In this document: piece by piece, positions 651-62,804 of the stretch
Layout: every line of letters starts with the position of its first letter
Numbering within the stretch: the first letter of the stretch is position 1
NCBI GenBank assembly: GCA_043732705.1
Contig: JAYTHE010000032.1
Location: 2,005-66,004, forward strand
Reading direction: 5' to 3'
DNA from: Candidatus Omnitrophota bacterium
Lineage (GTDB): Bacteria > Omnitrophota > Omnitrophia > Omnitrophales > Aquincolibacteriaceae
Length of the DNA: 64,000 nucleotides
Position numbers and translations under genes: made by a program
The notes under the pieces: generated by a model
What the model saw: only the letters and a program-made list of their open reading frames with translations
Database searches by the model: none
What the model was told of the DNA's origin: nothing

Positions 651-2042
651 ATGGTTGCACAGTCAGTTTTTAAAATAACTCATTTTTCAGACGCATCCCG
701 CAGATTTATTTCAGCGGGATTGCTTCTTCTTCTTTTTTTCTTTTGCCGGACTGGACTTTGCGAAGATTCGATTAAGATCAAAATTTTAGCCGTTAATCCC
801 TCCTCGACAAAAAGCCTCAAAACAAAAGTCGTCCAATATCTTCCTCCGGAAGTGGGGCCTGACGATGTGTTGGATAAAGAGGGGTTGGAGATTAAGTATG
901 ACTCCGAAAAAAGATCGTATTTAATTCAAAAAGAGGTTGAGCTTAAGCCCAGTGAAGCGCAAACAATAGAAGTGCGCGTTCGCAATGTTTGGATAATTAC
1001 TCCAGAGCAAATCGATGAAGTTAAATCTCAGCTCAAACAGAGTTCAGATGCGCTTGCCAAGACTAAATTTGCCGCAACAGGAAAACTTCTTTTCGATCGG
1101 GCGAGTGAGTCAATATCGCAAATTGAGGAAAATCAAGTAAAGCCGCTTGGGATTATGCAGAGAATAGATCTTTACCGCCTGAATGTGAAGCAGTTGGAAG
1201 ACTTAAAGCAGAATGCATTGTCGCTTGAAGCGATGAGAAAATTAGAAGAAGAAAAAAAAGCGGGCATCCGCGAAGTTAAGTTTGTTGTGAGCGCCGAAAA
1301 TCCTGCCGCGAAGGAAAAGAAGCTTTCCGTGCGTAGCGATCTTCCGAAGGATGTCAAGGCGGGGGATGTTTTGGAAAAAGGCGATTTCAAGCTTGTGTTT
1401 GACAATAGAAAATCACTCCTTTCGCTTGAGCGTGAAGACACTTTAGGGCCGCATGAAGTCAGAAAATATGAAATTATAATTCGCGACATTTGGTATATTC
1501 CCCAAAGTGAGCTCGATTTCTTAAAAGGAGAACTTGAAAAGCTGGTGCCTCTTTTTGATAAAAGCCCGTATGAAGATTTTGCCGCTAAGCAGAGTGAATT
1601 TGTTACGAAGTCGATTCAAGCCATTGTCGCATTGCAGGCTGAGGTCTCTTCTTCGGCCAGTTTGGATGATCGAATCCGTGCGCATGTTCTCAATGAGCAA
1701 CGCGAGAATTCGGCTAAACGAAGAATCAAGGAACTTCAAGATTTGCTTTCTGAGGTTACTCTCAAGCCCAATGAAAAGGAAGACAAGGGGCAGCTTCAGC
1801 AGATGATCAGAAAGCTGCTTGATCTGAAAAATAAAGTTCTGATCGCGCTTGGTACGCAGCCTAAAAAAACAGTGTTTTGGTGGTTCTTTCTTGGGGTTAT
1901 CTTTTTCTTAGCGGTCGTCACGATTATTTTTTATGGTACATGGCTTAAAAAGCTCCAGGATAACAAATGGGGCGTTCAACCCGCTAAAGGCAATCCCAAG
2001 TCCGAATCTAAAGATGAATCAGCGGCCGAACCTAAACCATGA
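651..2042 (+). CDS. coiled-coil protein with an N-terminal hydrophobic segment and a C-terminal transmembrane helix; translationally coupled to the downstream ATPase alpha gene
   Basis: 463-aa ORF; stop TGA 2040-2042 overlaps the ATG of the next gene at 2039; hydrophobic stretches AGLLLLLFFFC and FWWFFLGVIFFLAVVTIIFYG; charged heptad-like repeats between them. Confidence 0.5.
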   Translation: MVAQSVFKITHFSDASRRFISAGLLLLLFFFCRTGLCEDSIKIKILAVNPSSTKSLKTKVVQYLPPEVGPDDVLDKEGLEIKYDSEKRSYLIQKEVELKPSEAQTIEVRVRNVWIITPEQIDEVKSQLKQSSDALAKTKFAATGKLLFDRASESISQIEENQVKPLGIMQRIDLYRLNVKQLEDLKQNALSLEAMRKLEEEKKAGIREVKFVVSAENPAAKEKKLSVRSDLPKDVKAGDVLEKGDFKLVFDNRKSLLSLEREDTLGPHEVRKYEIIIRDIWYIPQSELDFLKGELEKLVPLFDKSPYEDFAAKQSEFVTKSIQAIVALQAEVSSSASLDDRIRAHVLNEQRENSAKRRIKELQDLLSEVTLKPNEKEDKGQLQQMIRKLLDLKNKVLIALGTQPKKTVFWWFFLGVIFFLAVVTIIFYGTWLKKLQDNKWGVQPAKGNPKSESKDESAAEPKP

Positions 2043-3532
2043 CAGACTTAAAATACAAAGAATACGGAACTGTCAAAGCCGTTAGCGGTTGTATCGCAAA
2101 AGTAATCGGTCTGCAAAATTGTTTTTTGGGGCAGTTGGTCAAGCTCGGAAAAGGCGCGGAAGGAATTATCATGGGTTTCGATTTAGAAATCGCGCAAGTT
2201 TTGATTGTGAAAGAGGCCGAGCCTGTTAGCCCGGGATGTGAAGTGATCGGAACGTTGGAGCCGTTCAATATGCCGGTCGGGGCCAATACGATCGGAAGAA
2301 TCATGAACCCTTTGGGGGATGCGCTCGATGGATTGGGACCGATTTCATTTGATACGCGCATCCCTTACTTTAACGCCGCTCCGGCTATTATGGATCGTGA
2401 AGGTTTGGGCCGATCATTTGAAACCGGAGTGAAGCTGATCGATACCATGCTGCCTTTAGGTAAAGGACAGCGCTCATTGGTGTTGGGCGATAAGATGACA
2501 GGCAAGACAACAATTGGCACGGATATTATTGTGAATCAAAAGGGCAAAGATGTCATTTGCATTTATTGCGGTATTGGAAAAACAAAATCAGCCATGGGAC
2601 GAGTCATTGATATTTTTAAAGAAAACGGCTGTTTTGATTACACAATTATTTTGCTGGCAGCGGCATCTTCTTCGCCGGGATTACAGTATTTAGCGCCCTA
2701 CGCAGCTTGTTCGCTCGGAGAATATTTTATGTACCAGGGCAAAGATGTTTTTATTTTTTTTGATGATTTTACGACGCATGCCTGGGCCTATCGGGAATTA
2801 TCGCTCTTGATGGAAATTCCTCCAGGAAGAGACTCTTATCCGGGTGATATTTTTTATTTGCATTCGCGCATGATTGAACGCGCGGCCCAACTTGATAAAA
2901 AACACGGCGGAGGATCGATGACCTTTTTGCCGGTGGTTCAGCTTTTGGAAAGCGATATGACGGCTTATGTGCCGACTAATCTGGTTTCAATGACAGACGG
3001 ACAGCTCTCGTTAAACGCGCAGCTTTTTAATGAAAATTTTCGCCCGGCCGTGGATGTGGGGTTATCCGTTTCGCGCGTCGGAAGCCGTGTCCAATGGAAA
3101 GCGACCAAAGCGGTGACTAAGTCCTTGCGCATGGAATTCATTCAATATAAAGAATTAGTGCGTATGAGCAAACTCCAATCGGGAGGGTCGGACGAAACCC
3201 GCGAAACTTTGCGTTCAGGAAAAGTGCTTTCGGCGCTTCTCATGCAAGCGGCAGGCAAACCAGTTGCTCTCGAAATGGATATTATTATTTTTTACTCAAA
3301 AGATGTCGGTCTTTTTAAAAAAATGGAAGCCCAGCATGCTCCCGAGTTTCTGAAGGGGCTTGAAGCCTATGTGGAAAAAACAGATTCTTTGCTGCGCAGT
3401 GACATTCGCACCAAAAAAGATTTAACTGACGACTTGAAAGCAAGAATTAAAAAAATAATTGAACCCTATGTGAGCACTGTTATTAAGCAGGTGGATGACG
3501 CGAAAAAAGCCACGTTAGCTCAAATTCAATAA
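2039..3532 (+). CDS. atpA: F-type ATPase alpha-subunit-like, divergent
   Basis: Alpha-type P-loop GDKMTGKTT; N-terminal beta-barrel region resembling alpha (GRIMNPLGDALDGLGPI); full-length 497 aa. Confidence 0.8.
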   Translation: MTDLKYKEYGTVKAVSGCIAKVIGLQNCFLGQLVKLGKGAEGIIMGFDLEIAQVLIVKEAEPVSPGCEVIGTLEPFNMPVGANTIGRIMNPLGDALDGLGPISFDTRIPYFNAAPAIMDREGLGRSFETGVKLIDTMLPLGKGQRSLVLGDKMTGKTTIGTDIIVNQKGKDVICIYCGIGKTKSAMGRVIDIFKENGCFDYTIILLAAASSSPGLQYLAPYAACSLGEYFMYQGKDVFIFFDDFTTHAWAYRELSLLMEIPPGRDSYPGDIFYLHSRMIERAAQLDKKHGGGSMTFLPVVQLLESDMTAYVPTNLVSMTDGQLSLNAQLFNENFRPAVDVGLSVSRVGSRVQWKATKAVTKSLRMEFIQYKELVRMSKLQSGGSDETRETLRSGKVLSALLMQAAGKPVALEMDIIIFYSKDVGLFKKMEAQHAPEFLKGLEAYVEKTDSLLRSDIRTKKDLTDDLKARIKKIIEPYVSTVIKQVDDAKKATLAQIQ

Positions 3533-3543
3533 AGAAGTCTATT

Positions 3544-3822
3544 GTGCCAAAAGCAAAGTTTCCGCTCGAGGTTGTGAGTACGGTGGGAATTATCTTTCAA
3601 GAGGATGTTGAGTCGGTTTATTTATTCGGGGCCGAAGGAGAGTTTGAGTTGCTGCCGTACCATTTTCCGCTTGTCGCCTCGCTGGTTTCAAGCGAGATTG
3701 TGATTCAGGGGTATGATTCTTTACCGATTCAGTCAGGTGTTGTGATGTTCAGGGATAATCAGTGTACGGTTATCGCCGAAATGCAGACTGGATTTAAAAA
3801 ACTAAAAAAGGCATGGTTTTAA
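3544..3822 (+). CDS. atpC: F-type ATPase epsilon subunit, short form with beta-sandwich domain only
   Basis: LEVVS...GAEGEFELLPYHFPLVASL matches the epsilon N-terminal domain pattern; 92 aa, lacks the C-terminal helices. Confidence 0.55.
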   Translation: MPKAKFPLEVVSTVGIIFQEDVESVYLFGAEGEFELLPYHFPLVASLVSSEIVIQGYDSLPIQSGVVMFRDNQCTVIAEMQTGFKKLKKAWF

Positions 3823-4041
3823 ATGGGGCAGAACGGAGCGGTTATTTTAGTCGTGATTTGCGCCGTGTTGGGGCCGGCAGCTGTTATCGCGGTGCTGGGT
3901 GCGGCCAGTATTAAAGCTTTGGGGCGAAATCCTTCCGCGGCGCCCAAAATTTATATGGGTGTAATTTTGATGCTTGTTTTCACTGAGGCAACTTCAATTA
4001 TGGCTTTGATGGTTATTTTTCATATTTTTGGGTCGAAATGA
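3823..4041 (+). CDS. atpE: F-type ATPase c subunit (proteolipid)
   Basis: 72-aa two-helix hairpin; Gly/Ala-rich helix 1, polar loop GRNPSAAP, conserved carboxylate E in helix 2 (VFTEATSIM). Confidence 0.7.
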   Translation: MGQNGAVILVVICAVLGPAAVIAVLGAASIKALGRNPSAAPKIYMGVILMLVFTEATSIMALMVIFHIFGSK

Positions 4042-4063
4042 TTTGTAAGAAGGAACAAAACCT

Positions 4064-4789
4064 ATGATGCTTTTGCAATTTATTATTTTGCAGGTTGTTG
4101 TGTTCGGCGTGGTAATTTTCTTTTTAAAGAAAATATTTCATGGCGACACAAATAGCGCCATTCAGCGTTTAGGGAGTGTGCATCAAGATTTACTTCAAAA
4201 GCAAATCGAGCTTCAAAAGAAGAACGAAGAAATTGAAAAAGAACTGGAATTAAAACGGGAAGAGGCGAATGCTGTCGCCGAAAAAATGAGAGCGGAAGCC
4301 GCGGTCGAAATCCGCAAAAAAGAGGATGAAGTTTTGAAGGTGGCACGCACGCAGGCGGAAGAAATTATTAACAAAGCACAGTTGTCGCGTGAAGATATGG
4401 CTAAGGAAATTGAATCGCAGTTGAGCAGAAAAATGATCGGTTTTTCAGCGGAAGTCGTGAAGAAAATTATGAGTGACAAACTAGCGGCCGTGATTCATGG
4501 CGAGCTGGTTAGTGACTTTATTTTGAAAGCGAAAGGCATGGATTTGTCTTCCGCGGGCGGCGCTAATGAGATTTTTGTTGTTCGTACGCCGGTTCCTCTT
4601 AGAAAAGAAGAAATTGAAAAGATCAACGCCTTGCTTGCGAGTAAGCTCAACCGTGTTGTGCAATTCAGCGAGGTTCCTGACGCGGATTTAATCGCGGGGA
4701 TCGTAATGCAGTTTGGCTCACTGGTTCTTGACGGATCATTAACAAGTTTATTGCGCGACGCAGTCGAAAAAATTCAACAAAAATATTGA
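4064..4789 (+). CDS. F-type ATPase b/delta fusion (peripheral stalk)
   Basis: N-terminal transmembrane helix plus long charged helix (b-like); C-terminal about 100 aa resemble the delta/OSCP C-domain (GIVMQFGSLVLDGSL). Confidence 0.55.
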   Translation: MMLLQFIILQVVVFGVVIFFLKKIFHGDTNSAIQRLGSVHQDLLQKQIELQKKNEEIEKELELKREEANAVAEKMRAEAAVEIRKKEDEVLKVARTQAEEIINKAQLSREDMAKEIESQLSRKMIGFSAEVVKKIMSDKLAAVIHGELVSDFILKAKGMDLSSAGGANEIFVVRTPVPLRKEEIEKINALLASKLNRVVQFSEVPDADLIAGIVMQFGSLVLDGSLTSLLRDAVEKIQQKY

Positions 4790-4813
4790 TTTCTCGGGAT
4801 GAAGAGGTTTTGA

Positions 4814-5719
4814 ATGGGAAAAGCAACCCGGTTAAAAGCTGAGCTTGAAGATGTCGGATCTTTGCTTGAGATTTTAACTGTTTTAAAGGATGTCTCATCG
4901 AACCGTTTTTTGGTTTATTCCGGAAAAAAAATACATTATCGAAGATTTGTAGAAATCTTTATGAGTTTTTTTGAGCTCTTGGACGGCTCTCAGACAACAA
5001 GTCCGATCGTTCATAACAAAAATCAAGGGACTGATATTCTCGTACTGACTTCAGAGCTTGGATTCATGTCGCAATTGAATAGCCGGGTTAGCACGGCGGC
5101 TCTCGAAGAATACAACAAGGATCCGAATTCACGGTTGATTTGCATCGGTCAACGAGGTTCGGAAAAATGTCGGAGTATGGGAATGGTAGTTGAGAAAATA
5201 TTTTCGCCGCCTGCGTCAGACGACCGTACCGAGTTGGCTTACCAGATCCGTGACTATTTGGTGGAAAGAGTAAATAGCGGAAAAACGGGAAAAGTAGCGA
5301 TGGCCTATGTTTGGGCAAAAAGTCTGGGTGTTTTGAAACCGGTGGTCATTCCGTTACTGCCGTTTCATGATGTTCAAGACCATCACCACAAAGAGCATAA
5401 AACAAAGAGAAAAACGGGATCCGGATTACCGCATAATATTATTTTTGAAACTCAAATTGATTCGATAGTCCTGACTTTAGCGAGTATCTGGGTGCATATG
5501 CGTCTTTTTGAAATGTTGAATGATTTGCAGATTGTCGAGGCCGCCGCGCAAGCCCATCAGCTTGAATCCGCAATTGAAAGTTTGAGCGGCGAAAAGAAAA
5601 AGGTGTTAATTGATTTTAGAAAAGCGACGCGCGAGCAATTGAATGCCGCGATGCGCGGAGTCATTACATCAACCAATATGACCAAAGCAAAAATCCGGGC
5701 TAAGGCAAAGCAAGGTTAA
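4814..5719 (+). CDS. atpG: F-type ATPase gamma-subunit-like
   Basis: N-terminal helix pattern ATRLKAELEDV...LEILTVLKDVSSNRF resembles gamma; 301 aa; sits between b/delta and beta. Confidence 0.5.
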   Translation: MGKATRLKAELEDVGSLLEILTVLKDVSSNRFLVYSGKKIHYRRFVEIFMSFFELLDGSQTTSPIVHNKNQGTDILVLTSELGFMSQLNSRVSTAALEEYNKDPNSRLICIGQRGSEKCRSMGMVVEKIFSPPASDDRTELAYQIRDYLVERVNSGKTGKVAMAYVWAKSLGVLKPVVIPLLPFHDVQDHHHKEHKTKRKTGSGLPHNIIFETQIDSIVLTLASIWVHMRLFEMLNDLQIVEAAAQAHQLESAIESLSGEKKKVLIDFRKATREQLNAAMRGVITSTNMTKAKIRAKAKQG

Positions 5720-5723
5720 GTTT

Positions 5724-7211
5724 ATGAACCAAGATAATTCCATTCCCTCTGTTCAAGGCGCTGCCGAAGCAGAGGTTCCACGGCCCATTTCCGCCGTAAA
5801 ACCCTCTGAAATACCGCCCTGTTATGGGAAAATTATCGGGGTTCGCGGTCCTGTCGTGGATGTGCGGTTTGACCGCACAGAAGATATGCCCGCCACATAC
5901 GATATTTTAATCGGGCAGGGTTTTGATAAAAGAAAAATCGTCATTGAAGTCGCCGAACATCTTAGCAAAAATGATGTCCGCTGCATTTCACTCTCCGATA
6001 CTTTAAATCTGCAGCTCAACACCAAAGTCTTAAACACCCGGAAATCAGTCAGCATTCGAACAGGCGATGAGCTTTTTGGGCGAATCATTAACGTTTTTGG
6101 AGACCCAATTGATAATTTAGGGGAATTTAGCGGCGTTGATTTTCGAGTGACCCGTCGTCCTCCTCGTCCGGAACTCTTCAATATCAAAAGTAAATTTAGT
6201 TTGAAGCCTGAAGTGCTTGAAACCGGCATTAAATTTATGGATATTCTTTATCCGCTTTGCAAAGGCGGAAAAACGGGAATCCTCGGAGGCGCGGGCTGCG
6301 GTAAAAGTGTCGTGATTTTGGAATTGATCAATAATATCGTGAAGAAATACGACGGAGCCTGTGTTTTTGTCGGCATCGGTGAGCGTATCCGCGAAGGGAA
6401 TGATCTTTTCTATGAATTGAAAGAAAACCATCTTTTGCATCGCGTTAAACTTGTTTTTGGCCAAATGAATGAGCCGCCGGGTGCACGTTTTGAATGTGTG
6501 AATACCGGAATTACGCTCGCCGAAGATTTAGCGGAACAAAATAAAGACGTACTGTTATTCATGGACAATGTTTTTCGATTCATTCAGGGAGGTATGGAAA
6601 TTGCGGCTCTTTTGGGGCGTGTGCCGGGAGAATCAGGTTACCAGCCGACTTTGCAATCCGAGGTGAACGCCGTGCAGGAGCGCATCCGCTCGATTCCGGG
6701 CCGCGGATCGATTACATCGCTTCAAGCTGTTTATGTTCCTGCGGACGATATGACAGACCCCTCTGTTGTGTCCATTTTTAGCTGCTTGGATGGTGCGTTA
6801 GCGCTGTCCCGCGATTTGGCCCAGCGTGGTTTTTATCCGGCGATCGATGCTTTGAGAAGTTCCTGCACAAATCTTGATGCGCGCATTGTCGGTCAGCGTC
6901 AATACGATTTAAGTCAAAAAATGTTAGCGCTTTTTGCGAAGCATAATTCTCTGAAGCGCATTGTGCAGGTTGTGGGTGTTGAAGAACTTCCCAAAGATGA
7001 TCAATTAGATTATAAACGCGCCGAAAAATTAATTAACTTTATGACTCAACCGTTCACCGTCGGCGAAGCCTTTACAGGAAAAAAGGGCGAGTTTGTAAAA
7101 ACATCTGAGGCGGTTGATGACTGCGAGGCCATCATTAGTGGTGATTATGATAAGCTGGGCGCGCAAGAATTTTATCTTATCGGCCGGGCACCGCAGAAGA
7201 AGATGAAATAA
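5724..7211 (+). CDS. atpD: F-type ATPase beta subunit, divergent, with an N-terminal extension
   Basis: P-loop GGAGCGKSV; catalytic GERIREGNDL; DELSEED-like EELPKDDQLDYKRAEKLINFMTQPF. Confidence 0.85.
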   Translation: MNQDNSIPSVQGAAEAEVPRPISAVKPSEIPPCYGKIIGVRGPVVDVRFDRTEDMPATYDILIGQGFDKRKIVIEVAEHLSKNDVRCISLSDTLNLQLNTKVLNTRKSVSIRTGDELFGRIINVFGDPIDNLGEFSGVDFRVTRRPPRPELFNIKSKFSLKPEVLETGIKFMDILYPLCKGGKTGILGGAGCGKSVVILELINNIVKKYDGACVFVGIGERIREGNDLFYELKENHLLHRVKLVFGQMNEPPGARFECVNTGITLAEDLAEQNKDVLLFMDNVFRFIQGGMEIAALLGRVPGESGYQPTLQSEVNAVQERIRSIPGRGSITSLQAVYVPADDMTDPSVVSIFSCLDGALALSRDLAQRGFYPAIDALRSSCTNLDARIVGQRQYDLSQKMLALFAKHNSLKRIVQVVGVEELPKDDQLDYKRAEKLINFMTQPFTVGEAFTGKKGEFVKTSEAVDDCEAIISGDYDKLGAQEFYLIGRAPQKKMK

Positions 7212-7212
7212 T

Positions 7213-9540
7213 ATGATTTCTACGAACGATCGATCCACATATAAAATTTTATTGGCATCCCAAGCCATTGCTTCCGATATTTTGGAAAAAGCCCTTAAAA
7301 CTGCTGAATCCGGACCGCGTTCCTTTTGGAAAGTGCTGGCCGAATCAAGCGGTTTGGGTGAATCGGGGCTTTATGAGGTTCTTTCCAGGCAAACCGGAAC
7401 GCCGTTTGTGCAGCTCAAGAAAATGACCGTTGAGGCTAAGGCACGCGAAAAAGTTCCCGTTAAAATCGCCTGGTATTATAAATTTTTTCCTTACAAAATG
7501 GAAGAAGGCAAGGTTTGGGTCGCATTTTCTCAAATTCCCGATATTTCTATTTTGGATGAAATTCGATTCGGCATCGGAATTGACGTGATGGTTGCGTTTG
7601 CGCCAGAAAAAGAAATCGAAGAAATGCTGAATAAGCATTATGGCTTGGGCGCGGATACCGTAAATAAAATTATCAGCCAGACACCCGAGTCGGAGGCTCA
7701 CCAGACTTCCAGCTCGACGCATCAGGTGGAAGACATTGAAAAGGGAGAGGATAATGCGTCTATCGCCCAGCTTGTAAATCAAATTATTCTCGAAGCTTAC
7801 AAGAAGCGTGCAAGCGACATTCATTTAGAACCTTATCGCGGCAAAGTTCGCCTCCGTTACCGTATAGACGGTGTTTTGCATGAAGCTCCCGTGCATGCTG
7901 AAATGAAAAAGTTTTTCACTTCCATTCTTTCGCGTATCAAAATCATGTCTAATTTGAACGTCGTCGAAAAACGTTTGCCGCAAGACGGAAAAATGCGAGT
8001 TAAAACCCAGGACCAAAATTTAGATTTACGTGTTTCGTCTATCCCGACCTCGCACGGTGAAAGCATGGTGATTCGAATTTTAACTGGTAAAAATGTTTGG
8101 TCGTTGGATGCGCTTGGATTTGAGCCCCAAAATCTAGCTCAAATTAAAAATCTTTTGCAAAGACCCAATGGGATTATTTTTGCGACCGGACCGACGGGAA
8201 GCGGGAAAAGCACGACGCTTTACGCTTGTTTAACCGCACTGAATTCCGAAGAACGAAAAATCATTACGATTGAAGACCCTGTGGAGTATGAATTGGAGGG
8301 CATCAGTCAGATTCAGGTTGCGAGCGACATCGGGCTGGGTTTTTCGCAAGGATTGCGCAGTGTCTTGCGTCATGATCCTGATGTCTTGATGGTGGGCGAG
8401 GTGCGGGATTTAGAGACCGCGGACATTTCCATTCGCGCCGCTTTAACGGGCCACCTTATTTTATCGACGCTGCACACGAATGACGCGGCAAGCGGAATTA
8501 CACGCTTGACGGACATCGGTGTTGAAAAATATTTGATAGCGTCGAGCGTTGTTGCTTTTATTGCGCAGCGGCTCGTCCGTGTGATTTGTCCGAAGTGCAA
8601 AGTGGTCCGGACAGATTTAGATCAAAAAATTGAAGAACAGATGATGATAAGTTTAAGAATCAGCCCGCAGGATAAAGTTCAGACTTATCAAAGCAAAGGT
8701 TGCGACGATTGTAATGGGACGGGCTTTGCAGGACGAAGAGCCATTCATGAGGTTTTGGTCATGACGGACGAAATACGAAAGCTCATCATGGATGGAGTCC
8801 CTGCCGGTGAAATCAAACGGCACGCCATGCGTAAAGGAATGGCGTCTTTGATGCAGGATGGTTTTCGGAAAGTGCTCCAAGGGATGACGACGCCCGAAGA
8901 AATTATGCGTGTTGCTCCGTCTGACCGCGAGGCGGGGGAATCAACGTATTTGTCCATGGAAGGAATGGGTATTGAACATCTTCCTATTCCAATTAAGTCT
9001 GATGCGGGAAGAGAAAGGGAGTTTTTGGCGTCGGTCGGGGATCAGGAATCGATGTTTGTTGGTGCAACTCAAAAAGAGGTTGAAAGTCAAAGAAAATACA
9101 AAAGAATAGCAATCAGTTTGCCGCTTAGTTATCGCCTGATTGAGTATCAGGCTGAACAAGTTCCGCCGTTGTCAACGATGAAAGAGGCTATTCTTAAAAA
9201 AAACTGGGAAGCGGAAGTTCAAGATATCAGTGCCGGGGGGCTTTTATTTGCAACTGAAAATTTGAGCCTTCACACTAATGAAAAAAAGTCAGAAGCAACT
9301 AATGTCAGCGTGAGCGATATTATTAATGCTGGAAGCGTCTTAGACCTTCGGATTACATTGCCGGATGGCGAAAGTCCGGTCAATTGTATCGGACGAGTTT
9401 TGCGGGTCTCACGTTCCGTGAAAAAACAGGAGTCCACCGAACAATTTATTTTCCATGTTGCCGTGCTTTTTCTTGTGATTAATAGTCATGACCGTTTAAG
9501 AATCGAAAAATTTTGTACAATGGCAGAGAAGAAATCATGA
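7213..9540 (+). CDS. gspE: GspE/PilB-family secretion ATPase with an extra C-terminal PilZ-like domain
   Basis: GspE N-domain; Walker A GPTGSGKSTT; tetracysteine CPKC...CDDC; the final ~200 aa carry RKYKR (RxxxR) and DISAGGLLF (DxSxGG) PilZ motifs; ATG is 2 nt after the atpD stop. Confidence 0.85.
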   Translation: MISTNDRSTYKILLASQAIASDILEKALKTAESGPRSFWKVLAESSGLGESGLYEVLSRQTGTPFVQLKKMTVEAKAREKVPVKIAWYYKFFPYKMEEGKVWVAFSQIPDISILDEIRFGIGIDVMVAFAPEKEIEEMLNKHYGLGADTVNKIISQTPESEAHQTSSSTHQVEDIEKGEDNASIAQLVNQIILEAYKKRASDIHLEPYRGKVRLRYRIDGVLHEAPVHAEMKKFFTSILSRIKIMSNLNVVEKRLPQDGKMRVKTQDQNLDLRVSSIPTSHGESMVIRILTGKNVWSLDALGFEPQNLAQIKNLLQRPNGIIFATGPTGSGKSTTLYACLTALNSEERKIITIEDPVEYELEGISQIQVASDIGLGFSQGLRSVLRHDPDVLMVGEVRDLETADISIRAALTGHLILSTLHTNDAASGITRLTDIGVEKYLIASSVVAFIAQRLVRVICPKCKVVRTDLDQKIEEQMMISLRISPQDKVQTYQSKGCDDCNGTGFAGRRAIHEVLVMTDEIRKLIMDGVPAGEIKRHAMRKGMASLMQDGFRKVLQGMTTPEEIMRVAPSDREAGESTYLSMEGMGIEHLPIPIKSDAGREREFLASVGDQESMFVGATQKEVESQRKYKRIAISLPLSYRLIEYQAEQVPPLSTMKEAILKKNWEAEVQDISAGGLLFATENLSLHTNEKKSEATNVSVSDIINAGSVLDLRITLPDGESPVNCIGRVLRVSRSVKKQESTEQFIFHVAVLFLVINSHDRLRIEKFCTMAEKKS

Positions 9541-10769
9541 AAATTTACCATTATCGCGCTAAAAAAAGCCCGACCGAAGTGAGAGAGGGAACTCTTCAAG
9601 CTGAGACTGAAGAAGAGGTCATCACGAAGGTTAATGATATGGGGTTAGTAGTGGTTCAGATTCAAGAGGTAACTGATAAGCCCGAGTCTGCGGCCTCTGC
9701 GCTTCATACCAATGAGCGCGCGCGTCCGTATCGAGGCCTATTGGGGCATGCCGTGACGCGTTTCTATAAGCAGTTTGGCCGACTCATTCAATCGGGTATC
9801 CCTATACTTCAGGCACTGAAGTTAATGGCTGATCAAACTGAAAGTGTCCGTCTCAAACATATTATTCAGGAAATCCAAAAAAATGTTGCTGAGGGGCTTC
9901 CTTTGTCACAGGCGCTATTTAAATATCCCGAGTATTTTTCCCCGTTTGACCTTGCCATGATCGAGGCCGGAGAATTGGTGGGACATTTGGACGAATCTTT
10001 GAAGCGGATAGCAATTTATCGAGATAGCCAGGAAAAACTGATGTCGAAAATCCGCGGATCGCTTGCATATCCGATTTTTGTGACGGTGGCGGGAGTCGCT
10101 GCGATTGTTTTTATGCTGTCTTTTGTGATGCCTAAGTTTAGTTTGTTTTTCTTGGATTTAGGACAAGAGCTGCCGCTTTTAACCCGGCTTTTAATCGGAG
10201 CTAGTCACATTGCAGAAAAAAGCTGGATCGGAATTTTAGGCGCGGCCGTTGTTTTATTTTTTATTTTCCGACGATCTTTACAGGCGGATGCCAAGCAAAT
10301 GGGGTGGCATCGTTTTTATTTAGGGCTTCCCAAAATCGGCCGCTTGATTGTGTATTCACAATTTTCACGATTTGCGCGAACTTTGAGCCTCTTGCTTGAA
10401 AGCGGAATTCCGCTGCTTAAAGCTTTACAGACTTCTTTGCCCGTTGTTACCAATCAAGTGATCCGCGCGCAATTACAGGTTTGCCACGCCGCGATCGTTG
10501 AGGGCGGCAGTTTTGGGGAAGCTTTGCGCCGCTCGGATCGAGTACCGGTTTTTGTGACCCAATTAATTCGAGCAGGCGAAGAGTCTGGGCGGCTGCAAGA
10601 GTCGTTGAATGATATTTCCGATTGGTATGAACAAGAGTTGCAGGAGAATGCGGAAGTTTTAACCAAACTTTTGGAACCGATTTTAATTTTAGCGGTAGGA
10701 GCGATCTTAGGGCTGATGGTGATTGCGGTGCTGCTTCCCATTTTTAGCATGAATGCGGCGGTTTCTTAA
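9537..10769 (+). CDS. gspF: GspF/PilC inner-membrane platform protein
   Basis: Two tandem GspF domains with three transmembrane segments; ATGA overlap with the gspE stop (the alternative upstream start at 9513 is less likely). Confidence 0.85.
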   Translation: MKIYHYRAKKSPTEVREGTLQAETEEEVITKVNDMGLVVVQIQEVTDKPESAASALHTNERARPYRGLLGHAVTRFYKQFGRLIQSGIPILQALKLMADQTESVRLKHIIQEIQKNVAEGLPLSQALFKYPEYFSPFDLAMIEAGELVGHLDESLKRIAIYRDSQEKLMSKIRGSLAYPIFVTVAGVAAIVFMLSFVMPKFSLFFLDLGQELPLLTRLLIGASHIAEKSWIGILGAAVVLFFIFRRSLQADAKQMGWHRFYLGLPKIGRLIVYSQFSRFARTLSLLLESGIPLLKALQTSLPVVTNQVIRAQLQVCHAAIVEGGSFGEALRRSDRVPVFVTQLIRAGEESGRLQESLNDISDWYEQELQENAEVLTKLLEPILILAVGAILGLMVIAVLLPIFSMNAAVS

Positions 10770-10776
10770 GTTATTC

Positions 10777-10876
10777 TGCCTCTGCGCGAGTAACCGATAC
10801 TGTGATAATTAAAGCCTCTACGCAAAAGCGCAACCGGCACGATCATAATGAATGCCTCTGCGCAAGCGCAACCGGC
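10777..10876. repeat. three direct repeats (GCCTCTGCGCAAGCGCAACCGGCA-like) at 36-40 bp spacing, just upstream of gspG
   Basis: Copies at 10777, 10813 and 10853; the last two are near-identical over about 24 nt; followed by RBS GGAG and ATG 10888. Confidence 0.5.
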
Positions 10877-10887
10877 AAAAAGGAGTA

Positions 10888-11317
10888 TATGAAAATGAAA
10901 GACTTTAAAGAACGAGGATTTACGCTGATTGAGATTTTATTGGTGGTCATTATTATCAGTACGCTTTCGGCAATGGTTTTACCGCGCCTCGTAGGCCGTT
11001 CCGACCAGGCGCGTGTCGCGACGGCGAAAGCGGACGTTCAAGTTAATATTCCTTCGGCATTAAAGCTATACGAACTTGATAATGGATTTTTTCCGTCAAC
11101 GGAGCAAGGGCTTCAGGCGTTATTTTCGAAGTCGGCGACGCAGCCAGTCCCGGAAAATTGGAATGGACCCTATTTAGAAAGAAAACCTATTGATCCTTGG
11201 GGGCGGCCTTACCAATATTTATCGCCCGGAATTAATCGTCCGCATGATTATGATTTATTTTCCATGGGGAAAGTCGCGGATCCAAAAAAGACGGAAGATG
11301 ATATTACAAATTGGTGA
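10888..11317 (+). CDS. gspG: major pseudopilin GspG (type IV pilin-like)
   Basis: Prepilin leader MKMKDFKERG|FTLIEILLVV; GspG-like C-terminus (DPWGRPYQY); the ORF-track start at 10802 would translate the repeat region. Confidence 0.8.
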
Positions 11318-11321
11318 CCGG

Positions 11322-11729
11322 GTGAAATTAAAACCGAAAAGAAAAATAAAAGGTTTTACGCTGATCGAAGTGCTGCTCAGCGTAATGATTCTTTCTTTCG
11401 GTTTGATTACGGTGAATCAAATACTTTTACGTTCATTAAGCATTTTGAGCTATTCACAAACACGTTTTCAAGCCAACCGGGTCTTAGAAAATAAAATTTT
11501 TGAAATTCAAAATCAAACGTGGCATCAAAAACAAGCGCCCTCCTCCCGCGAGGACGGAGTTTTGCTTGGGGACCGCAAAACATTTTCATATAAAATGCAA
11601 TCCGTCAGCGTAAGAGGATCGAAATTTTTATATGAAATTCGTATGGCAATTCATTGGCTTGAATCCGGAAAAGAAAAAGGACTGACGCGAACATTTTATG
11701 CCCGCCTTCCGTACACCCCCCCAGTCTAA
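11322..11729 (+). CDS. minor pseudopilin (GspH/I-like)
   Basis: Prepilin motif KG|FTLIEVLLSVMIL; start ambiguous (ATG 11298 or GTG 11322 five nt after the gspG stop). Confidence 0.55.
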   Translation: MKLKPKRKIKGFTLIEVLLSVMILSFGLITVNQILLRSLSILSYSQTRFQANRVLENKIFEIQNQTWHQKQAPSSREDGVLLGDRKTFSYKMQSVSVRGSKFLYEIRMAIHWLESGKEKGLTRTFYARLPYTPPV

Positions 11730-12339
11730 ATCCGGTTTTACACTGATCGAGCTATTAGTCTCGATGGTTATTGCCGTGTTTGTTGGCGGGGCAATTTTTG
11801 TGACTTTTGCGCAGGGCATTCGGATTTGGCAGGCGGCGGTACGGGAAAGTCAGCATGGCAAAGAAGAGTTTTTCTTCGAAGAGCTGAAATCAGAATTACG
11901 CAATGCTTTCCTCTATAAGAAGTCAGCATTAAATGGACAGAGCCAAATGTTTGAATTTCACACTTTGGCAGCGCAGTTACGCGGAAAAAATAAAAACCAA
12001 AAAATTTGGAAAGTCCCGGCGCAAATTCGTTACCGTTTTGATCCGAGTCAGAAACTCATTCGGAAAGAAGTTACTTTTTATGAGAAGATGCTGACAGAAA
12101 AGGGTGGGGTGGATCAAACCCGGGTTGTTCTTGAGGCTGTCACGGATGTAAATATAGAGTATTATCGACACCCGAAGAAAGGTTCGTCGGCAAGTTGGGT
12201 GCGTCATTGGAGCGACACTTGTTTTCCGGAGGCGGTTAAAATTACAATTGAAACTGAATCCGGCCCTAAGATGAAAGAAGTTCGAATTGTGTCAATTCCC
12301 GCAACTGGGGAATGCACAGAAGAGGAAAGTGCGGTATGA
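11698..12339 (+). CDS. minor pseudopilin (GspJ-like)
   Basis: Leader MPAFRTPPQSKSG|FTLIELLVSMVIAV. Confidence 0.6.
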   Translation: MPAFRTPPQSKSGFTLIELLVSMVIAVFVGGAIFVTFAQGIRIWQAAVRESQHGKEEFFFEELKSELRNAFLYKKSALNGQSQMFEFHTLAAQLRGKNKNQKIWKVPAQIRYRFDPSQKLIRKEVTFYEKMLTEKGGVDQTRVVLEAVTDVNIEYYRHPKKGSSASWVRHWSDTCFPEAVKITIETESGPKMKEVRIVSIPATGECTEEESAV

Positions 12340-13880
12340 GTTTTTGGGAAAAAGCAAAAGACTGTTTAGCGGTTGATTTCTCCGGAAATCAAATGAAGAT
12401 TTTACGTGGTCAGTCCGTAAGCGGAAAAATTGTATTTAAAGACATCTTTTTTAAAAAGTTTTCGCAGGCATCCGATGCGGAAATGATGCGCGAAGTCCTG
12501 CAGTACTTTAAGAAGAATCGTATTTCCACGAAACAAGTTATCTGCACCATTCCTTCAAAATTATTTATCTCTAAAAATGTAGAAATTCCATCGACTGAAA
12601 AAGAAGAGATTGCAAAAATCATTGATTTGCAGGCGGGACGGTTTACCCCTTATTCCCGGGACGAAATTGTGATCGATTTTCTCTGTATGGAAACACCGAC
12701 TCAACATTACACCAGTGTTTTGCTTGTCATTGTTAACCGTACTTTAGTAGACCGCTATTGCCGAATTTTTGAAGATATCGGAATTCCGATTAAGATTATG
12801 ATTGCCTCAGAGGCAATGGTGCTAACCTACCGGGACTTACTGGCGGGTTCTGCGAATAGCTCGGCTGCCCTGGGCGGGCTTTGCATCGGAGAAGACTCGA
12901 CGGATTTTACGGTGATGGACCATAATCAAATGGTTTTTGTGCGTAGTTTGCCGGTTGGCGAGGAGCATTTTCAAGCCGGAAAGGATCTGGCTTCTGCGGA
13001 ATTGATTAAGGAGCTCAATAAATCTCTCTCGGCGTATCAAGACCAGGGGGTAGGAAAACCGGTTAAATCACTTATTTTGACGGGTTTTATTGACGATCCG
13101 AACGGCTTAAAGGCTATGCTGCTAGCCGGTTGTCCTATTTTACAGCGTTTTGAAACAGCTGTGACGACCTTCGGTAAGGCATCTCAGCAATTATTTCAAA
13201 TTAGTGAACAGGCTCTTCAAAAAATAGATAAAGTGAAGCCTGCGTCTTTTATTGAATTGATGATGGTGCTTTCCAAATCTGAGCAGGCGCAAATCGATTT
13301 AATTCCCAAGGAAATTAAGCTTAAGCGCGGTTTCCGCGAACAAAGCCATGAGATTACGAGCTTGGGAATCACGATCATGACAATCTTTATTGTGCTCAGC
13401 CTTTTTCTCTACACCAAAATTTATTTCAAAAATACGCGCATGCAAAAAATAGAGGCCGCCGGCAAAGCCACATTTGACGACGCGCGCATGCTAGAGCGAA
13501 TTTCAACGAAGAACCGGGTGGTACGAAAAATTTTAAAAACACGCGGTAAAGGACTTTCAGCGTTTGATGAGGTAACGGGTTTATTAGGGGAGTCGACCTA
13601 TCTTTCACATATGGGATATGACATTGACGGCAAAATCACTTTAGGCGGAACGGCAGAATCCATGTCCCAGGTGTTTGCCCTGGTGAACCGGCTAGAGGCT
13701 TCGAATCATTATCTGAGCGTCAAAGCGACAGAAACAAAATCACGCCGCGAAGGGACGAAGGACGTCGCGGACTTTGAAATTGTTTGTATTCTGCCGGAAA
13801 GTATCGCGGCAGAGAAATGGGAAGATGAAAAGTCAGGGAAATCAACCGCGTCGACAAGTTCGGAAAAACCCGGCGAATAA
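12336..13880 (+). CDS. GspL-like / PilM-PilN fusion (cytoplasmic actin-like domain, transmembrane segment, periplasmic domain)
   Basis: PilM-like N-terminus (LAVDFSGNQMKILRG); single transmembrane segment ITSLGITIMTIFIVLSLFLY; ATGA overlap with the upstream stop. Confidence 0.55.
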   Translation: MSFWEKAKDCLAVDFSGNQMKILRGQSVSGKIVFKDIFFKKFSQASDAEMMREVLQYFKKNRISTKQVICTIPSKLFISKNVEIPSTEKEEIAKIIDLQAGRFTPYSRDEIVIDFLCMETPTQHYTSVLLVIVNRTLVDRYCRIFEDIGIPIKIMIASEAMVLTYRDLLAGSANSSAALGGLCIGEDSTDFTVMDHNQMVFVRSLPVGEEHFQAGKDLASAELIKELNKSLSAYQDQGVGKPVKSLILTGFIDDPNGLKAMLLAGCPILQRFETAVTTFGKASQQLFQISEQALQKIDKVKPASFIELMMVLSKSEQAQIDLIPKEIKLKRGFREQSHEITSLGITIMTIFIVLSLFLYTKIYFKNTRMQKIEAAGKATFDDARMLERISTKNRVVRKILKTRGKGLSAFDEVTGLLGESTYLSHMGYDIDGKITLGGTAESMSQVFALVNRLEASNHYLSVKATETKSRREGTKDVADFEIVCILPESIAAEKWEDEKSGKSTASTSSEKPGE

Positions 13881-15419: not shown

Positions 15420-15764
15420 CTAGTCTTTTTTAATTTTTTTCAGTTGATGCTCGAGTTGAGCAACTGCCTGAGCCAAAGATTCCGTGCGGGAGTTTTGCTC
15501 GTTGATATAAAGCGTTAAATGTAAACTGAGAAAAATAACGAAAACAAGCAGCATAAAGAAAATAAAATTACTCGGCAAACTGAAACCCGCCCAATTTGAA
15601 ATTTGAACGAGCAAGCTGTTATTGAACGCAAAAAATAAAGCCACTCCGCAGCCGATAAACCAGTTTGCGGCATATTTAAATGTCATTTTTTCACGGCGTA
15701 TGAGATCTACCACGGCCGCAACGATAATGAGCGCAATGACAATAATCAGGAACTTAGTTTGCAT
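15420..15764 (-). CDS. DUF2304-family small membrane protein (GT2-associated)
   Basis: Four hydrophobic segments; MQTKF start preceded by GGAGAT; classic position immediately 3' of a GT2 polyprenyl-phosphate glycosyltransferase. Confidence 0.55.
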   Translation of the reverse strand: MQTKFLIIVIALIIVAAVVDLIRREKMTFKYAANWFIGCGVALFFAFNNSLLVQISNWAGFSLPSNFIFFMLLVFVIFLSLHLTLYINEQNSRTESLAQAVAQLEHQLKKIKKD

Positions 15765-16479
15765 GTTTGGATATCTCCGGTTTTTTCTTAAGAGCATCGA
15801 TTAGAATGGCAAGTGTTACTTTCAGCATATAATAGAGCGTCGCTAAATAGCGGATGGACGATTGTCCGCCGCGCCGCTCGCGCATTTGGACGGGAATTTC
15901 ACCGATCCGGGACCTGTGGCGCCGCGCTATTTTAATTGCTTCCGGTTCCGGAAAATCAATAGGATAATACTCGGCAAAGCGGCATATCAGGTTGCGGTTG
16001 CAGGCTCTGAATCCCGAGGTTGGGTCCGTGAGGTAGAGGCCTGTCATTAATTTGAGCAGACTACAGAAAAAGCGGATGCCCAGGCGCCGCATCCATGTGG
16101 ATTTAAATGAGTCATCATGAATAATGAAACGGCTGCCGATACAGAGATCCAAATGATTGTCGAGAAGAGGCTGAATGATTTCTTTTAAATAACGCGGATC
16201 ATGCTGGCCGTCGCCGTCAATTTGAACCGCAATGTCATAGCCCATTTCGGCCGCAATTTTGTAGCCGGTTTGGACAGCGCCGCCGATTCCCATATTAAAG
16301 GGCAGGGTCACGACATCGGCGCCGGCTTTGAGAGCCTCAATCTCGGTTTGATCGCGGGATTGATCATTGATGACTAAAATATCGGCAAAAGAAGCGGCCA
16401 AGCGAATTTCCGAGATAAGTCCGGCAATCGCTTTTTCCTCGTTGTAAGCGGGAATAATAATTAAAATTTTAGAGGACAT
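15754..16479 (-). CDS. GT2 polyprenyl-phosphate sugar synthase (DPM1/ArnC-like)
   Basis: IIIPAYNEE...VINDQSRD...DGDGQHDP motifs (DXD). Confidence 0.8.
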   Translation of the reverse strand: MSSKILIIIPAYNEEKAIAGLISEIRLAASFADILVINDQSRDQTEIEALKAGADVVTLPFNMGIGGAVQTGYKIAAEMGYDIAVQIDGDGQHDPRYLKEIIQPLLDNHLDLCIGSRFIIHDDSFKSTWMRRLGIRFFCSLLKLMTGLYLTDPTSGFRACNRNLICRFAEYYPIDFPEPEAIKIARRHRSRIGEIPVQMRERRGGQSSIRYLATLYYMLKVTLAILIDALKKKPEISKHAN

Positions 16480-19039: not shown

Positions 19040-19387
19040 ATGAAAATTCAGCATTTTATTTTAGTTTTATTTCTTCTTGTTCCCGCTGTTTCTTTTGCGG
19101 CAGATGACAAAAAAGAAAACGAGTCTGTAAAAGTAAACGGCATTGTTTTTAATATCGCCAAAGACCGAAAAATTGAAAAAATCGGCGGAGTTTATGAGCC
19201 GGAAGGCATTGATAAGTATGTGGACCGGCGCATGAGCGAAATGACAGAGCGACTTCAAAGAATTGAAATCCAACTTGATGAGACTAATAAAAAGCTGGAT
19301 AAGGTTTTCACTCAGCTGGCTTCAACCGTATCTGTATCCGCACCCACTTCGGCGCCTATTCCAACGAAAGATAAAACTAAAAAATGA
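19040..19387 (+). CDS. small secreted coiled-coil protein
   Basis: Signal peptide MKIQHFILVLFLLVPAVSFA|ADD. Confidence 0.4.
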   Translation: MKIQHFILVLFLLVPAVSFAADDKKENESVKVNGIVFNIAKDRKIEKIGGVYEPEGIDKYVDRRMSEMTERLQRIEIQLDETNKKLDKVFTQLASTVSVSAPTSAPIPTKDKTKK

Positions 19388-51138: not shown

Positions 51139-51157
51139 AGCGGCCAAGGAGAAAATC

Positions 51158-52219: not shown

Positions 52220-52376
52220 AAATTAAGTATTGATATGAAAAAAATCGGCACATTTTTACCGCCGCGTTTTATTTTTTCTTCAGATTGCAGCTTTCGCACG
52301 GAATTACGTACGGGACGCAGACTTTCATCTAAGTGTGTCATCGCGGCGAATAATTAAAAGGTAAGAAAACTAAAAA

Positions 52377-54215: not shown

Positions 54216-54243
54216 TGTTAATCATTTAGAAAAAGGTAATCTC

Positions 54244-62668: not shown

Positions 62669-62804
62669 CCTAGTGTGCGACGCTCGATAAAGCTCGCGTC
62701 GCAAAAGCATCCTCCTATTGCGGAATTTTAAAATTTTTTTTCTAGTTAAAGCCTGCCCTGTAAAATAGTTACGATTTCTATTTTTCCCACTATATCTAGT
62801 GCAA

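Follow-up and report, generated by a model that had tools for sequence, protein, structure and literature searches.

Two routes are known by which c-di-GMP reaches the ATPases of type IV pili (T4P) and of systems for type II secretion (T2SS), namely N-terminal MshEN domains and separate partners of the PilZ/FimX type, and how either of them alters the hexameric motor is poorly understood (review PMC11656802). In MshE, PilB and PA14_29490, c-di-GMP acts directly on the motor, being bound by two 24-residue RLGxxLLxxGLLxxxxLxxxLxxQ motifs of the N-domain (Wang et al. 2016, PMC5013675). In the Xanthomonas citri PilB-PilZ-FimX system, a PilB-type ATPase has lost its MshEN motifs and is served by a PilZ-fold regulator; this PilZ is a separate protein that carries neither RxxxR nor DxSxxG and does not bind c-di-GMP, and the EAL domain of FimX is the sensor (PMC8389850). 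PilF of Thermus thermophilus, likewise of the PilB family, contains three N-terminal GSPII/MshEN domains, among them binding and non-binding ones, and no PilZ domain. PilZ domains that act on molecular motors in the c-di-GMP-loaded state are found in Bacillus subtilis MotI/DgrA (YpfA) and Escherichia coli YcgR, which are stand-alone two-domain proteins working in trans on the flagellar stator/rotor as a brake or clutch. In the 4p00 system, a C-terminal PilZ domain is fused to the enzyme that it regulates and the RxxxR linker relays ligand binding to the catalytic domain, but the output is a membrane glycosyltransferase and not a hexameric AAA+-like ATPase.

The gene described here, gspE::pilZ (positions 7213-9540), is located in a 64-kb stretch of DNA from an uncultured bacterium of Candidatus Omnitrophota, referred to below as the window; all coordinates are those of the window and of its forward strand unless otherwise stated. 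The ORF encodes a 775-aa protein in which an MshEN-like domain, a T2SSE ATPase and a PilZ domain follow one another (Pfam scores of 48.3, 442 and 28.1 bits, respectively; pLDDT of the full-length AF2 model, 87.2). This architecture had already been flagged automatically by Pfam. The protein shares with MshE, PilB and PA14_29490 the ATPase family, the ND0+ND1 fold of the N-domain and a putative action of c-di-GMP directly on the motor. Compared with the X. citri system, its PilZ domain is covalent, C-terminal and intact in its motifs, so that one polypeptide would be sensor, adaptor and motor; compared with MotI and YcgR, a single PilZ domain is joined to a secretion ATPase. PilZ domains fuse readily to other proteins, and a PilZ-fused GspE is not a new principle. 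At the same time, no described GspE/PilB-PilZ fusion was found in literature searches, and such a fusion as the c-di-GMP wiring of a secretion/pilus motor is apparently undescribed so far.

The N2D and C-terminal ATPase domain (residues 179-566, 7747-8910; Pfam T2SSE, PF00437) matches PilB and GspE structures in the PDB with E values of 1e-130 to 1e-110. By motif position it carries Walker A, GPTGSGKS (residues 326-333, 8188-8211), which is kept in all 234 full-length relatives, the Asp box IEDPVE (residues 353-358, 8269-8286), Walker B, DPDVLMVGEVRD (residues 388-399, 8374-8409), the His box GHLILSTLH (residues 413-421, 8449-8475) and the zinc tetracysteine motif CPKC/CDDC (residues 459-462 and 497-500, 8587-8598 and 8701-8712), whose C459, C462, C497 and C500 are invariant in an 84-sequence alignment. 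The catalytic and zinc motifs of a GspE/PilB-type ATPase are thus intact. An earlier sequence-only reading had described this ORF as a GspE with a zinc tetracysteine motif, an EEIMRV end and about 200 extra residues, and this description holds: EEIMRV occupies residues 562-567 and 208 residues follow it. The NCBIfam scores, 570.9 bits for TIGR02533 (GspE) and 552.2 bits for TIGR02538 (PilB), are below the respective equivalog cut-offs of 630.25 and 675.65, and the protein is therefore a member of the GspE/PilB superfamily that reaches the equivalog level of neither T2SS GspE nor T4aP PilB.

The same three-domain architecture was present in every one of the 234 full-length relatives retrieved, which answers the survey of GspE homologues proposed together with the sequence-only reading; all named relatives among them belong to Candidatus Omnitrophota. 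The fusion is the norm in this phylum (at least 234 protein clusters). This distribution bears on the suspicion that the gene is an artefact, in which misassembly or a frameshift has joined an ordinary gspE to a separate pilZ gene downstream. Such a join might be read from the short contig L007 (676 bp, 1.1x coverage), in which the two parts lie in different frames, but this exception is best explained by sequencing error on a low-coverage contig, since the ATPase and the tail share one frame in L001-L006 and L008 and the architecture recurs in 234 full-length protein clusters, which are independent of one another and come from many samples. An artefact is thereby effectively refuted. The narrow tail alignment (A2) recovered six GTDB loci, and a word-index search for homologues of the isolated tail gave only one fragment. 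The short top matches of the tail profile (110-170 aa) were considered as stand-alone PilZ paralogues; the only one of them examined, P0128 (again on the contig of 676 bp and 1.1x coverage), turned out to be the same gspE-pilZ-gspF locus with a frameshift, so these short matches were not counted as stand-alone genes.

The N-terminal region has the fold, and not the ligand residues, of an MshEN domain. A four-helix bundle equivalent to MshEN_N (ND0, residues 4-61, 7222-7395) was delimited in the model and by HMMER alignment, with helices at residues 4-16, 21-33, 38-45 and 49-61 and pLDDT of 87-95 over the block. It is followed by an alpha/beta sub-domain equivalent to MshEN_C (ND1, residues ~62-155, 7396-7677), in which PF05157 matches residues 62-145 and the alpha/beta module itself is modelled at residues 75-155 (pLDDT mostly 87-96, about 73-84 over residues 141-155). 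Homology to the N-domains of PilB and PilF begins at residue ~6-12, and the best PDB match of the N-domain is Thermus thermophilus PilF. In the HMMER alignment to the PilF domain, DKRLGAALLDAGLL stands opposite DRSTYKILLASQAI, and the motif in the window protein is degenerate: S-T-Y replaces R-L-G, while G10 has become Q and Q24 has become A. The strict MshEN motif consists of two tandem 24-residue repeats, RLGxx(L/V/I)(L/V/I)xxG(L/V/I)(L/V/I)xxxxLxxxLxxQ. Even the motif in its relaxed form, [RKPN]hGxxhhxx[GAS]hhxxxxhxxxhxx[QNKRYWST] (Wang et al., PMC5013675), was matched by none of the 119 relatives of a first set and by one of the 234 of the larger set; the control PilB proteins, taken from Geobacter and Myxococcus, did match it, as did an MshEN protein that is encoded on its own in L008. 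By its residues, the domain should therefore not qualify as an MshEN-type receptor, despite its fold. The sequence-only reading had placed c-di-GMP control on the PilZ-like tail rather than on an MshEN-type N-domain. This needs to be corrected insofar as an MshEN domain is present, although the contrast stands for its c-di-GMP motifs, which are degenerate. ND1 has a role in binding GspL/PilM and PilZ (PMC8389850), and by analogy it is expected to be the contact site for a PilM/GspL-type platform here as well.

The C-terminal tail is identified by several approaches. PF07238 matches residues 626-768, scoring 28.1 bits when the complete protein is searched and 32.4-33.5 bits for the tail alone (E = 1.2e-7), above the gathering score of 22.5 although modest for the window protein, and homologous tails matched the PilZ HMM by themselves in 40 of 40 cases. 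The AF2 model of residues 617-775 (pLDDT 92.1, pTM 0.84) shows a beta-barrel with a C-terminal helix, and a Foldseek search of the PDB with this model gave nothing but PilZ domains among the 24 best matches (E values of 3e-5 to 1.4e-2, probability 1.00). The top matches include MotI/DgrA, YcgR, MrkH, BcsA, PP4397, MapZ, PlzA and VCA0042, most of them crystallised with c-di-GMP, and 4p00 is among the matches; MotI/DgrA and YcgR are the closest in structure and sequence (5vx6, 5y6g). The TM-scores of only 0.43-0.60 are low because of two insertions. An insertion of ~22 residues in the barrel (residues ~684-706, 9262-9330) is visible in the alignment and in a lower pLDDT of 72-75; it is particular to the sub-clade of the window protein, and shorter family members (~712-740 aa) do not have it. 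The domain was accordingly assigned to residues 626-775 (9088-9537), comprising the RxxxR loop, the barrel and the C-terminal helix. The three computational checks suggested with the sequence-only reading, an HMM search, structure prediction and the survey of homologues, have thus come out in its favour.

The two signatures named in that reading, RKYKR and DISAGG, are found at the canonical positions. The RxxxR motif R627-K-Y-K-R631 (9091-9105) is located at the end of the tether, directly before strand beta-1, which starts at residue 632 in the model, and the (D/N)xSxxG motif D671-I-S-A-G-G676 (9223-9240) forms the beta2-beta3 turn between the modelled strands 665-672 and 676-682. The second signature had been written as DxSxGG; this form is not the canonical one, which is (D/N)xSxxG, but the sequence itself fits the latter. 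The tail profile also aligns to the PilZ domain of MotI/YpfA, with the NISAGG of MotI opposite the family motif. The two motifs are spaced 39 residues apart, seemingly more than in textbook examples of the domain. Q626 of the window protein stands in the place of a third Arg that most relatives have, the family consensus being RRKYxR; according to work on PP4397 and VCA0042, the missing third Arg could reportedly alter ligand stoichiometry or affinity.

When the tail was shuffled 20,000 times with its composition preserved, an RxxxR followed by [DN]xSxxG 15-50 residues further on appeared in 156 cases (0.8%), so the pair alone is suggestive. However, among 84 homologues that are 43-82% identical, R627, R631, S673 and G676 are the sole invariant residues of the tail, R627 and R631 are also invariant in a set of 40 sequences, and the pair occurs in 223 of the 234 relatives (seven of the 234 have no pair detectable by regular expression). 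Together with the HMM match, this family-wide invariance puts the PilZ motifs well beyond chance. By HMM, motifs and predicted fold, the tail is a PilZ domain of the canonical type and a putative c-di-GMP binder.

Two alternatives in which the tail does not respond to c-di-GMP were weighed against these data. According to the first, it is a ligand-independent PilZ-fold adaptor similar to PilZ of Xanthomonas and Pseudomonas, constitutively bound to the N-domain, with motifs that are purely structural. PilZ proteins that do not bind the ligand are known to dock on PilB through its N-domain, which is MshEN-like and degenerate (PMC8389850), and the N-domain of the present protein is degenerate too. 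Nevertheless, PilZ proteins of this type lack RxxxR and DxSxxG, have an incomplete barrel and do not bind c-di-GMP (10.1101/814665; PMC8389850), whereas in this family both motifs are present and provide the only invariant residues of the tail, and the predicted barrel is complete, with the RxxxR loop at its N-terminus. We consider such an adaptor very unlikely. The second alternative, a PilZ-like tail that binds another ligand, for example another cyclic dinucleotide, appeals to the fact that binding specificity is not revealed by sequence alone. It appears still more improbable, close to negligible, given that RxxxR with (D/N)xSxxG is the established c-di-GMP signature (PMC5013675), that the closest structures are all c-di-GMP receptors and that a riboswitch in the window (see below) shows c-di-GMP to be in use.

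Between the ATPase and the PilZ domain, residues 574-625 (52 residues, 8932-9087) form a flexible tether with pLDDT below 50 in the full-length model; in the family alignment its conservation is weak and its length varies, and disorder is predicted for it. It is much longer than the linker of the 4p00 system. The length and predicted disorder of the tether leave room for a reading in which the tail binds c-di-GMP but acts mainly in localisation or recruitment, for example by tethering the protein to the PilM-PilN/GspF platform or to another partner, and not allosterically on ATP turnover. A long disordered tether would let the barrel reach partners beyond the hexamer; a protein interface is suggested by family-specific residues that are conserved on the surface and do not belong to the ligand motifs (C725, R731, F753, L754 and R761); and ATP hydrolysis by Clostridium PilB2 in vitro is unchanged by c-di-GMP binding (review PMC11656802). 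On the other hand, recruitment and allosteric control are not mutually exclusive, and a role mainly in recruitment seems to us rather unlikely.

The reading that we prefer, and regard as probable, is that a T2S-like (type IV filament) assembly ATPase gained a tethered, ligand-competent PilZ domain, that its MshEN-fold domain lost the c-di-GMP residues and that the PilZ domain switches assembly. According to this scheme, c-di-GMP would be bound by R627 and R631 of the RxxxR loop and by S673 and G676 of the DxSxxG turn. The tether ends in the RxxxR loop, and the ligand would make this loop ordered around the nucleotide, as happens in other PilZ proteins. Ordering of the loop would shift the seating of the barrel on the hexamer of the ATPase, on the N-domain or on the PilM/GspF platform, and this shift would switch pseudopilus assembly, so that secretion or filament extension would respond to c-di-GMP. 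For PilB, a PilZ protein that docks on a degenerate N-domain of the MshEN-like kind is already known (PMC8389850). Ligand binding is here an inference, as are its consequence for assembly or for ATPase activity and the direction in which it works; activation at high c-di-GMP may be slightly favoured, by analogy with MshE/PilB and with the relief of auto-inhibition in BcsA. A covalent PilZ fusion shared by an entire phylum would offer biochemistry and cryo-EM a simple one-protein system for PilZ gating of a PilB/GspE hexamer.

A more specific and only tentative version, which we would not expect to prove right, is a receptor swap, in which the ancestral MshEN site decayed and the tethered PilZ took over, the c-di-GMP-loaded PilZ docking in cis or on a neighbouring subunit onto the degenerate N-domain. 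If this were the case, the fusion would condense the PilB-PilZ-FimX relay of Xanthomonas into a single polypeptide and be a natural 'Rosetta stone' for PilZ-fold gating of PilB-type hexamers, and the canonical MshEN protein neighbouring the fusion in L008 would be a second c-di-GMP input in some lineages.

The gene lies in a tightly coupled, conserved operon with the order ATP-synthase/gspE::pilZ/gspF/pseudopilin/pilMN, which is its constant setting and is syntenic in seven loci; L002-L006 and L008 share the gene order of the window. The ATG of gspF, the platform protein (9537-10769; Pfam T2SSF, 191 bits), overlaps the stop codon of gspE (ATGA). Downstream are a GspG-type major pseudopilin (10802-11317; T2SSG, 105 bits), a pseudopilin with an N-methyl motif (11190-11729; Pfam N_methyl), a GspJ-type pseudopilin (11698-12339; T2SSJ) and a PilM-PilN fusion of the assembly platform (12312-13880; PilM_2 and PilN), which is kept in L004, L005 and L008 and probably partners the N-domain of the ATPase; a GspK-type minor pseudopilin is encoded at 20427-21425 (T2SSK_1st and T2SSK). 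The cluster thus combines pseudopilins of the T2SS type with a PilM-PilN platform. Within the 64-kb window, no secretin, second GspE/PilB or PilT was found, nor were other PilZ proteins, MshEN motifs elsewhere, or the GGDEF, EAL and HD-GYP signatures of diguanylate cyclases and phosphodiesterases. In L008, a separate stand-alone MshEN protein that matches the motif is encoded beside the fusion locus.

T2SS-like machinery of Omnitrophota has been linked to giant adhesin-like proteins and to a proposed predatory or host-dependent lifestyle, and GGDEF domains and pilZ genes have been reported in the phylum (10.1101/2023.11.21.568195). The fusion points to c-di-GMP as a possible regulator of this machinery. 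Additionally, the window contains a c-di-GMP-I riboswitch (52994-53133, reverse strand; it matches the full model 1-87 of Rfam RF01051 with 58.3 bits, the gathering score being 35), so this genome does use c-di-GMP. The riboswitch lies about 43 kb from gspE::pilZ, outside the operon, upstream of an ORF for a transglutaminase-like/BTLCP protease (52377-52928, reverse strand).

The gspE::pilZ gene is an uninterrupted ORF (7213..9540, + strand) encoding 775 residues, in which Pfam recognized an MshEN/T2SSE_N domain (residues 62-145, 48.3 bits) and a T2SSE ATPase domain (residues 179-566, 442 bits). The ATPase part is complete, with all of its motifs located: Walker A GPTGSGKS (residues 326-333), the Asp box IEDPVE (353-358), Walker B DPDVLMVGEVRD (388-399), the His box (413-421), and the tetracysteine pair CPKC (459-462) and CDDC (497-500). 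The EEIMRV sequence (residues 562-567) is followed by 208 more residues up to the C-terminus, so that the ORF and the C-terminal extension claimed in the sequence-only reading were borne out.

That reading had assigned the tail to the c-di-GMP-binding PilZ type from two signatures. Both RKYKR (RxxxR motif, residues 627-631) and DISAGG (residues 671-676) are indeed present, although the second motif, written there as DxSxGG, should be (D/N)xSxxG. Since RxxxR followed 15-50 residues on by [DN]xSxxG was also found in 0.8% of shuffled tails, the motifs alone are weak evidence for a PilZ domain. The suggested profile and structural checks both agreed with the assignment. PF07238 matched the isolated tail with 32.4-33.5 bits (E about 1e-7) and residues 626-768 of the whole protein with 28.1 bits against a gathering score of 22.5, and each of 40/40 homologous tails individually matched the PilZ HMM (best E = 4.6e-16). 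The AlphaFold2 model of residues 617-775, obtained with a 40-sequence alignment as input (mean pLDDT 92.1, pTM 0.84), shows a beta-barrel that leads into a long C-terminal helix. The first 24 Foldseek PDB matches to this model were PilZ domains only, most of the structures containing bound c-di-GMP (E 3e-5 to 1.4e-2, probability 1.00); the matches include MotI/DgrA 5vx6, YcgR 5y6g/5y6f, MrkH, BcsA 4p00, PP4397 3kyf, MapZ, PA0012, PlzA, and VCA0042. TM-scores were moderate (0.43-0.60) because the tail domain is interrupted by two insertions, one a helical segment lying between beta-1 and beta-2, the other a sub-clade-specific stretch of ~22 residues (residues ~684-706). The best PDB match of the tail profile was MotI/YpfA, whose NISAGG aligns to the family niSAgG. 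In the full-length model, RxxxR lies directly before strand beta-1 (632-644) and DxSxxG at the turn joining strands 665-672 and 676-682, which are, as modelled, the canonical PilZ positions. The tail of the gspE::pilZ product is a PilZ domain.

Homology searches with two queries (the window protein and its most distant first-round relative, 120 clusters each) yielded, when pooled, at least 234 different full-length proteins, 701-805 aa in length. Walker A was found in 234/234 of the listed relatives and the RxxxR...[DN]xSxxG pair in 223, with a variant first residue in 4 more and no pair detectable by regular expression in the other 7; the proposed survey of homologues thus did reveal this architecture, and all of the named ones are from Candidatus Omnitrophota/Omnitrophica MAGs. 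When 84 sequences sharing 43-82% identity with the query were aligned, R627, R631, S673, and G676 were the sole invariant tail positions, a pattern that would be expected under selection for ligand binding; the window protein carries QRxxxR versus RRxxxR in most relatives. Among the conserved positions listed for this alignment, C725, C768, R731, F753, L754, and R761 (window 9088-9537) are family-specific and nearly invariant; a conserved Cys lies in a C-I-G-R-V-L-R strand, and a conserved F-L-x-I-x-S-x-D-R-x-R-[IL]-E-K-F-C segment runs into the C-terminal helix. These conserved non-ligand residues are candidates for a protein-protein interface. An artefactual origin of the fusion was rejected, given that the ATPase and tail share one frame in seven independent loci. 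Just one entry, P0128, looked split, with the two parts in different frames; it was attributed to a frameshift on a 676-bp contig with 1.1x coverage.

Homology to the MshEN/PilB N-domain extends over residues ~4-155, which were confidently modelled as a four-helix bundle (4-61) and an alpha/beta module (75-155), with pLDDT mostly 87-96 and about 73-84 over residues 141-155. The sequence-only reading had placed c-di-GMP control on the tail rather than on an MshEN-type N-domain; an MshEN-fold domain is present after all, but its c-di-GMP motif is degenerate, and the substance of the claim holds. In the HMMER alignment, PilF DKRLGAALLDAGLL stands opposite DRSTYKILLASQAI of the query, and the family has A/T/K, S/A/C, Y/F, and A/S at motif positions 1, 2, 3, and 24, respectively, with the hydrophobic scaffold retained. 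The relaxed MshEN pattern of Wang et al. (PMC5013675), which does match control PilB fragments from Geobacter and Myxococcus, was found in 0/119 first-round relatives and 1/234 listed relatives overall. A distant Omnitrophota locus, L008, encodes a separate 161-aa MshEN-domain protein (L008:9473-9958) between atpD and the degenerate-MshEN/T2SSE/PilZ gene, carrying the textbook motif RIGEILVEKGWITEAQLHDALVEQ, the 5-residue spacer KLSDK, and a second near-canonical repeat, FLGTILINKGLINDHNLMEALSLQ. Such a stand-alone protein, absent from the window, might feed c-di-GMP signals into this machine by a second, separate route. Because canonical MshEN sites exist in the phylum, it is significant that the ATPase N-domain lacks them, and the PilZ tail rather than the N-domain is plausibly the c-di-GMP site.

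In characterised PilZ proteins (YcgR, VCA0042, BcsA), the RxxxR loop wraps c-di-GMP and re-orients the adjoining domain. Here, RxxxR forms the extreme end of a tether (residues 574-625) that varies in sequence and length and is disordered in the full-length model (pLDDT 31-38). By analogy, the most economical model would be that c-di-GMP binding orders the tether end, altering how the PilZ barrel contacts the hexamer or its platform partners and thereby gating pseudopilus assembly; PilZ might also dock in cis on the degenerate N-domain, for which a Xanthomonas PilZ-fold protein sets a precedent. Activation is slightly favoured by analogy with MshE/PilB and BcsA, whereas analogy with MotI/YcgR would point to a brake. 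The c-di-GMP-PilZ interpretation of the tail is supported computationally.

There is precedent for GspE/PilB ATPases responsive to c-di-GMP, for PilZ proteins that partner PilB, and for enzymes bearing a C-terminal PilZ domain, and PilZ control of a PilB-type ATPase via fusion is unsurprising in principle. In the literature searched (surveys of PilZ domains, the MshEN paper, reviews on c-di-GMP, a 2024 PilB cofactor review, and Omnitrophota genomics), no description was found of a putatively ligand-competent PilZ domain joined covalently to the GspE/PilB C-terminus together with decay of the MshEN site. Pfam picks up the architecture automatically in public databases, where source names ignore the PilZ part. 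The Xanthomonas/Pseudomonas PilZ is non-binding and lacks both motifs (10.1101/814665; PMC8389850), in contrast to the tail described here, whose invariant residues all belong to them. In Xanthomonas, a PilZ-fold protein docks on the degenerate MshEN-like ND0/ND1 of PilB, leaving the PilM interface unblocked (PMC8389850). The fusion, being clean, natural, and spread across the phylum, could open PilZ control of PilB-type motors to experiments.

No GGDEF or EAL proteins are encoded within the 64-kb window. A full-length c-di-GMP-I riboswitch, one stem of which is enlarged by a ~60-nt insertion, was detected (52994-53133, - strand; Rfam RF01051, E = 8e-9, 58.3 bits versus a gathering score of 35), and downstream of it lies a 183-aa transglutaminase-like/BTLCP-type cysteine protease ORF (52377-52928, - strand), of the family that includes c-di-GMP-controlled LapG. 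Three FecR-domain ORFs are located nearby on the opposite strand (51083-55470). GGDEF domains and small pilZ genes near T2SS-like loci were reported for the phylum in a preprint on Omnitrophota giant genes (10.1101/2023.11.21.568195), and together with the riboswitch this indicates that c-di-GMP is in use.

The gene sits in a tightly packed same-strand cluster, after F-type ATP synthase genes alpha (2039-3532), epsilon (3544-3822), c (3823-4041), b/delta (4064-4789), gamma (4814-5719), and beta (5724-7211), all on the + strand; this ATP synthase set (2039-7211) lacks an a subunit, and nothing is encoded between beta and gspE, whose ATG follows the beta stop codon after a 1-nt gap. The gspF ATG overlaps the gspE stop (ATGA), and a GspG-type major pseudopilin, two more pseudopilins (one GspJ-type), a 522-aa PilM-PilN fusion (12312-13880; PilM_2 and PilN domains), and, farther downstream, GspK follow. 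The fusion, GspL-like in architecture and PilM/PilN by domain scores, also occurs in L004, L005, and L008. The order atp genes/gspE::pilZ/gspF/gspG/pseudopilins/pilMN is kept in the related loci L002-L006 (ATPase identity 56-81%) and L008; the ATP synthase-T2SS linkage is common to these loci and the window, with the order epsilon-c-b/delta-alpha-gamma-beta in L008 (4472-9460) versus alpha-epsilon-c-b/delta-gamma-beta in the window. The ATPase scored 571 bits as GspE and 552 bits as PilB with NCBIfam, both below the equivalog cut-offs; no secretin (GspD/PilQ), PilT, or prepilin peptidase was detected among the Pfam-scanned ORFs, and the 64-kb window has no second GspE; the system is therefore called T2SS-like, of the type IV filament superfamily, not a bona fide T2SS. 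The outer-membrane part, if any, is encoded elsewhere.

Between pilMN/TPR and gspK, this cluster also contains an STT3/PglB-like oligosaccharyltransferase gene (16496-18985) and two family-2 glycosyltransferase genes (15754-16479, - strand; 19384-20424, + strand), whose products might glycosylate pseudopilins or secreted substrates. In L008, a giant gene (L008:1-4179, its 6,633-residue product running off the locus edge) adjoins the ATP synthase/T2SS-like cluster upstream, which is consistent with the reported link between giant genes in this phylum and T2SS-like loci; the window has no giant gene. At the other end of the window, a tyrosine recombinase gene (Phage_integrase and SAM-like N-domain, 61742-62668) precedes a tRNA gene (62925-62999); this region (61742-62999) may be a hotspot for integration, or the recombinase may be a XerC/D homologue.
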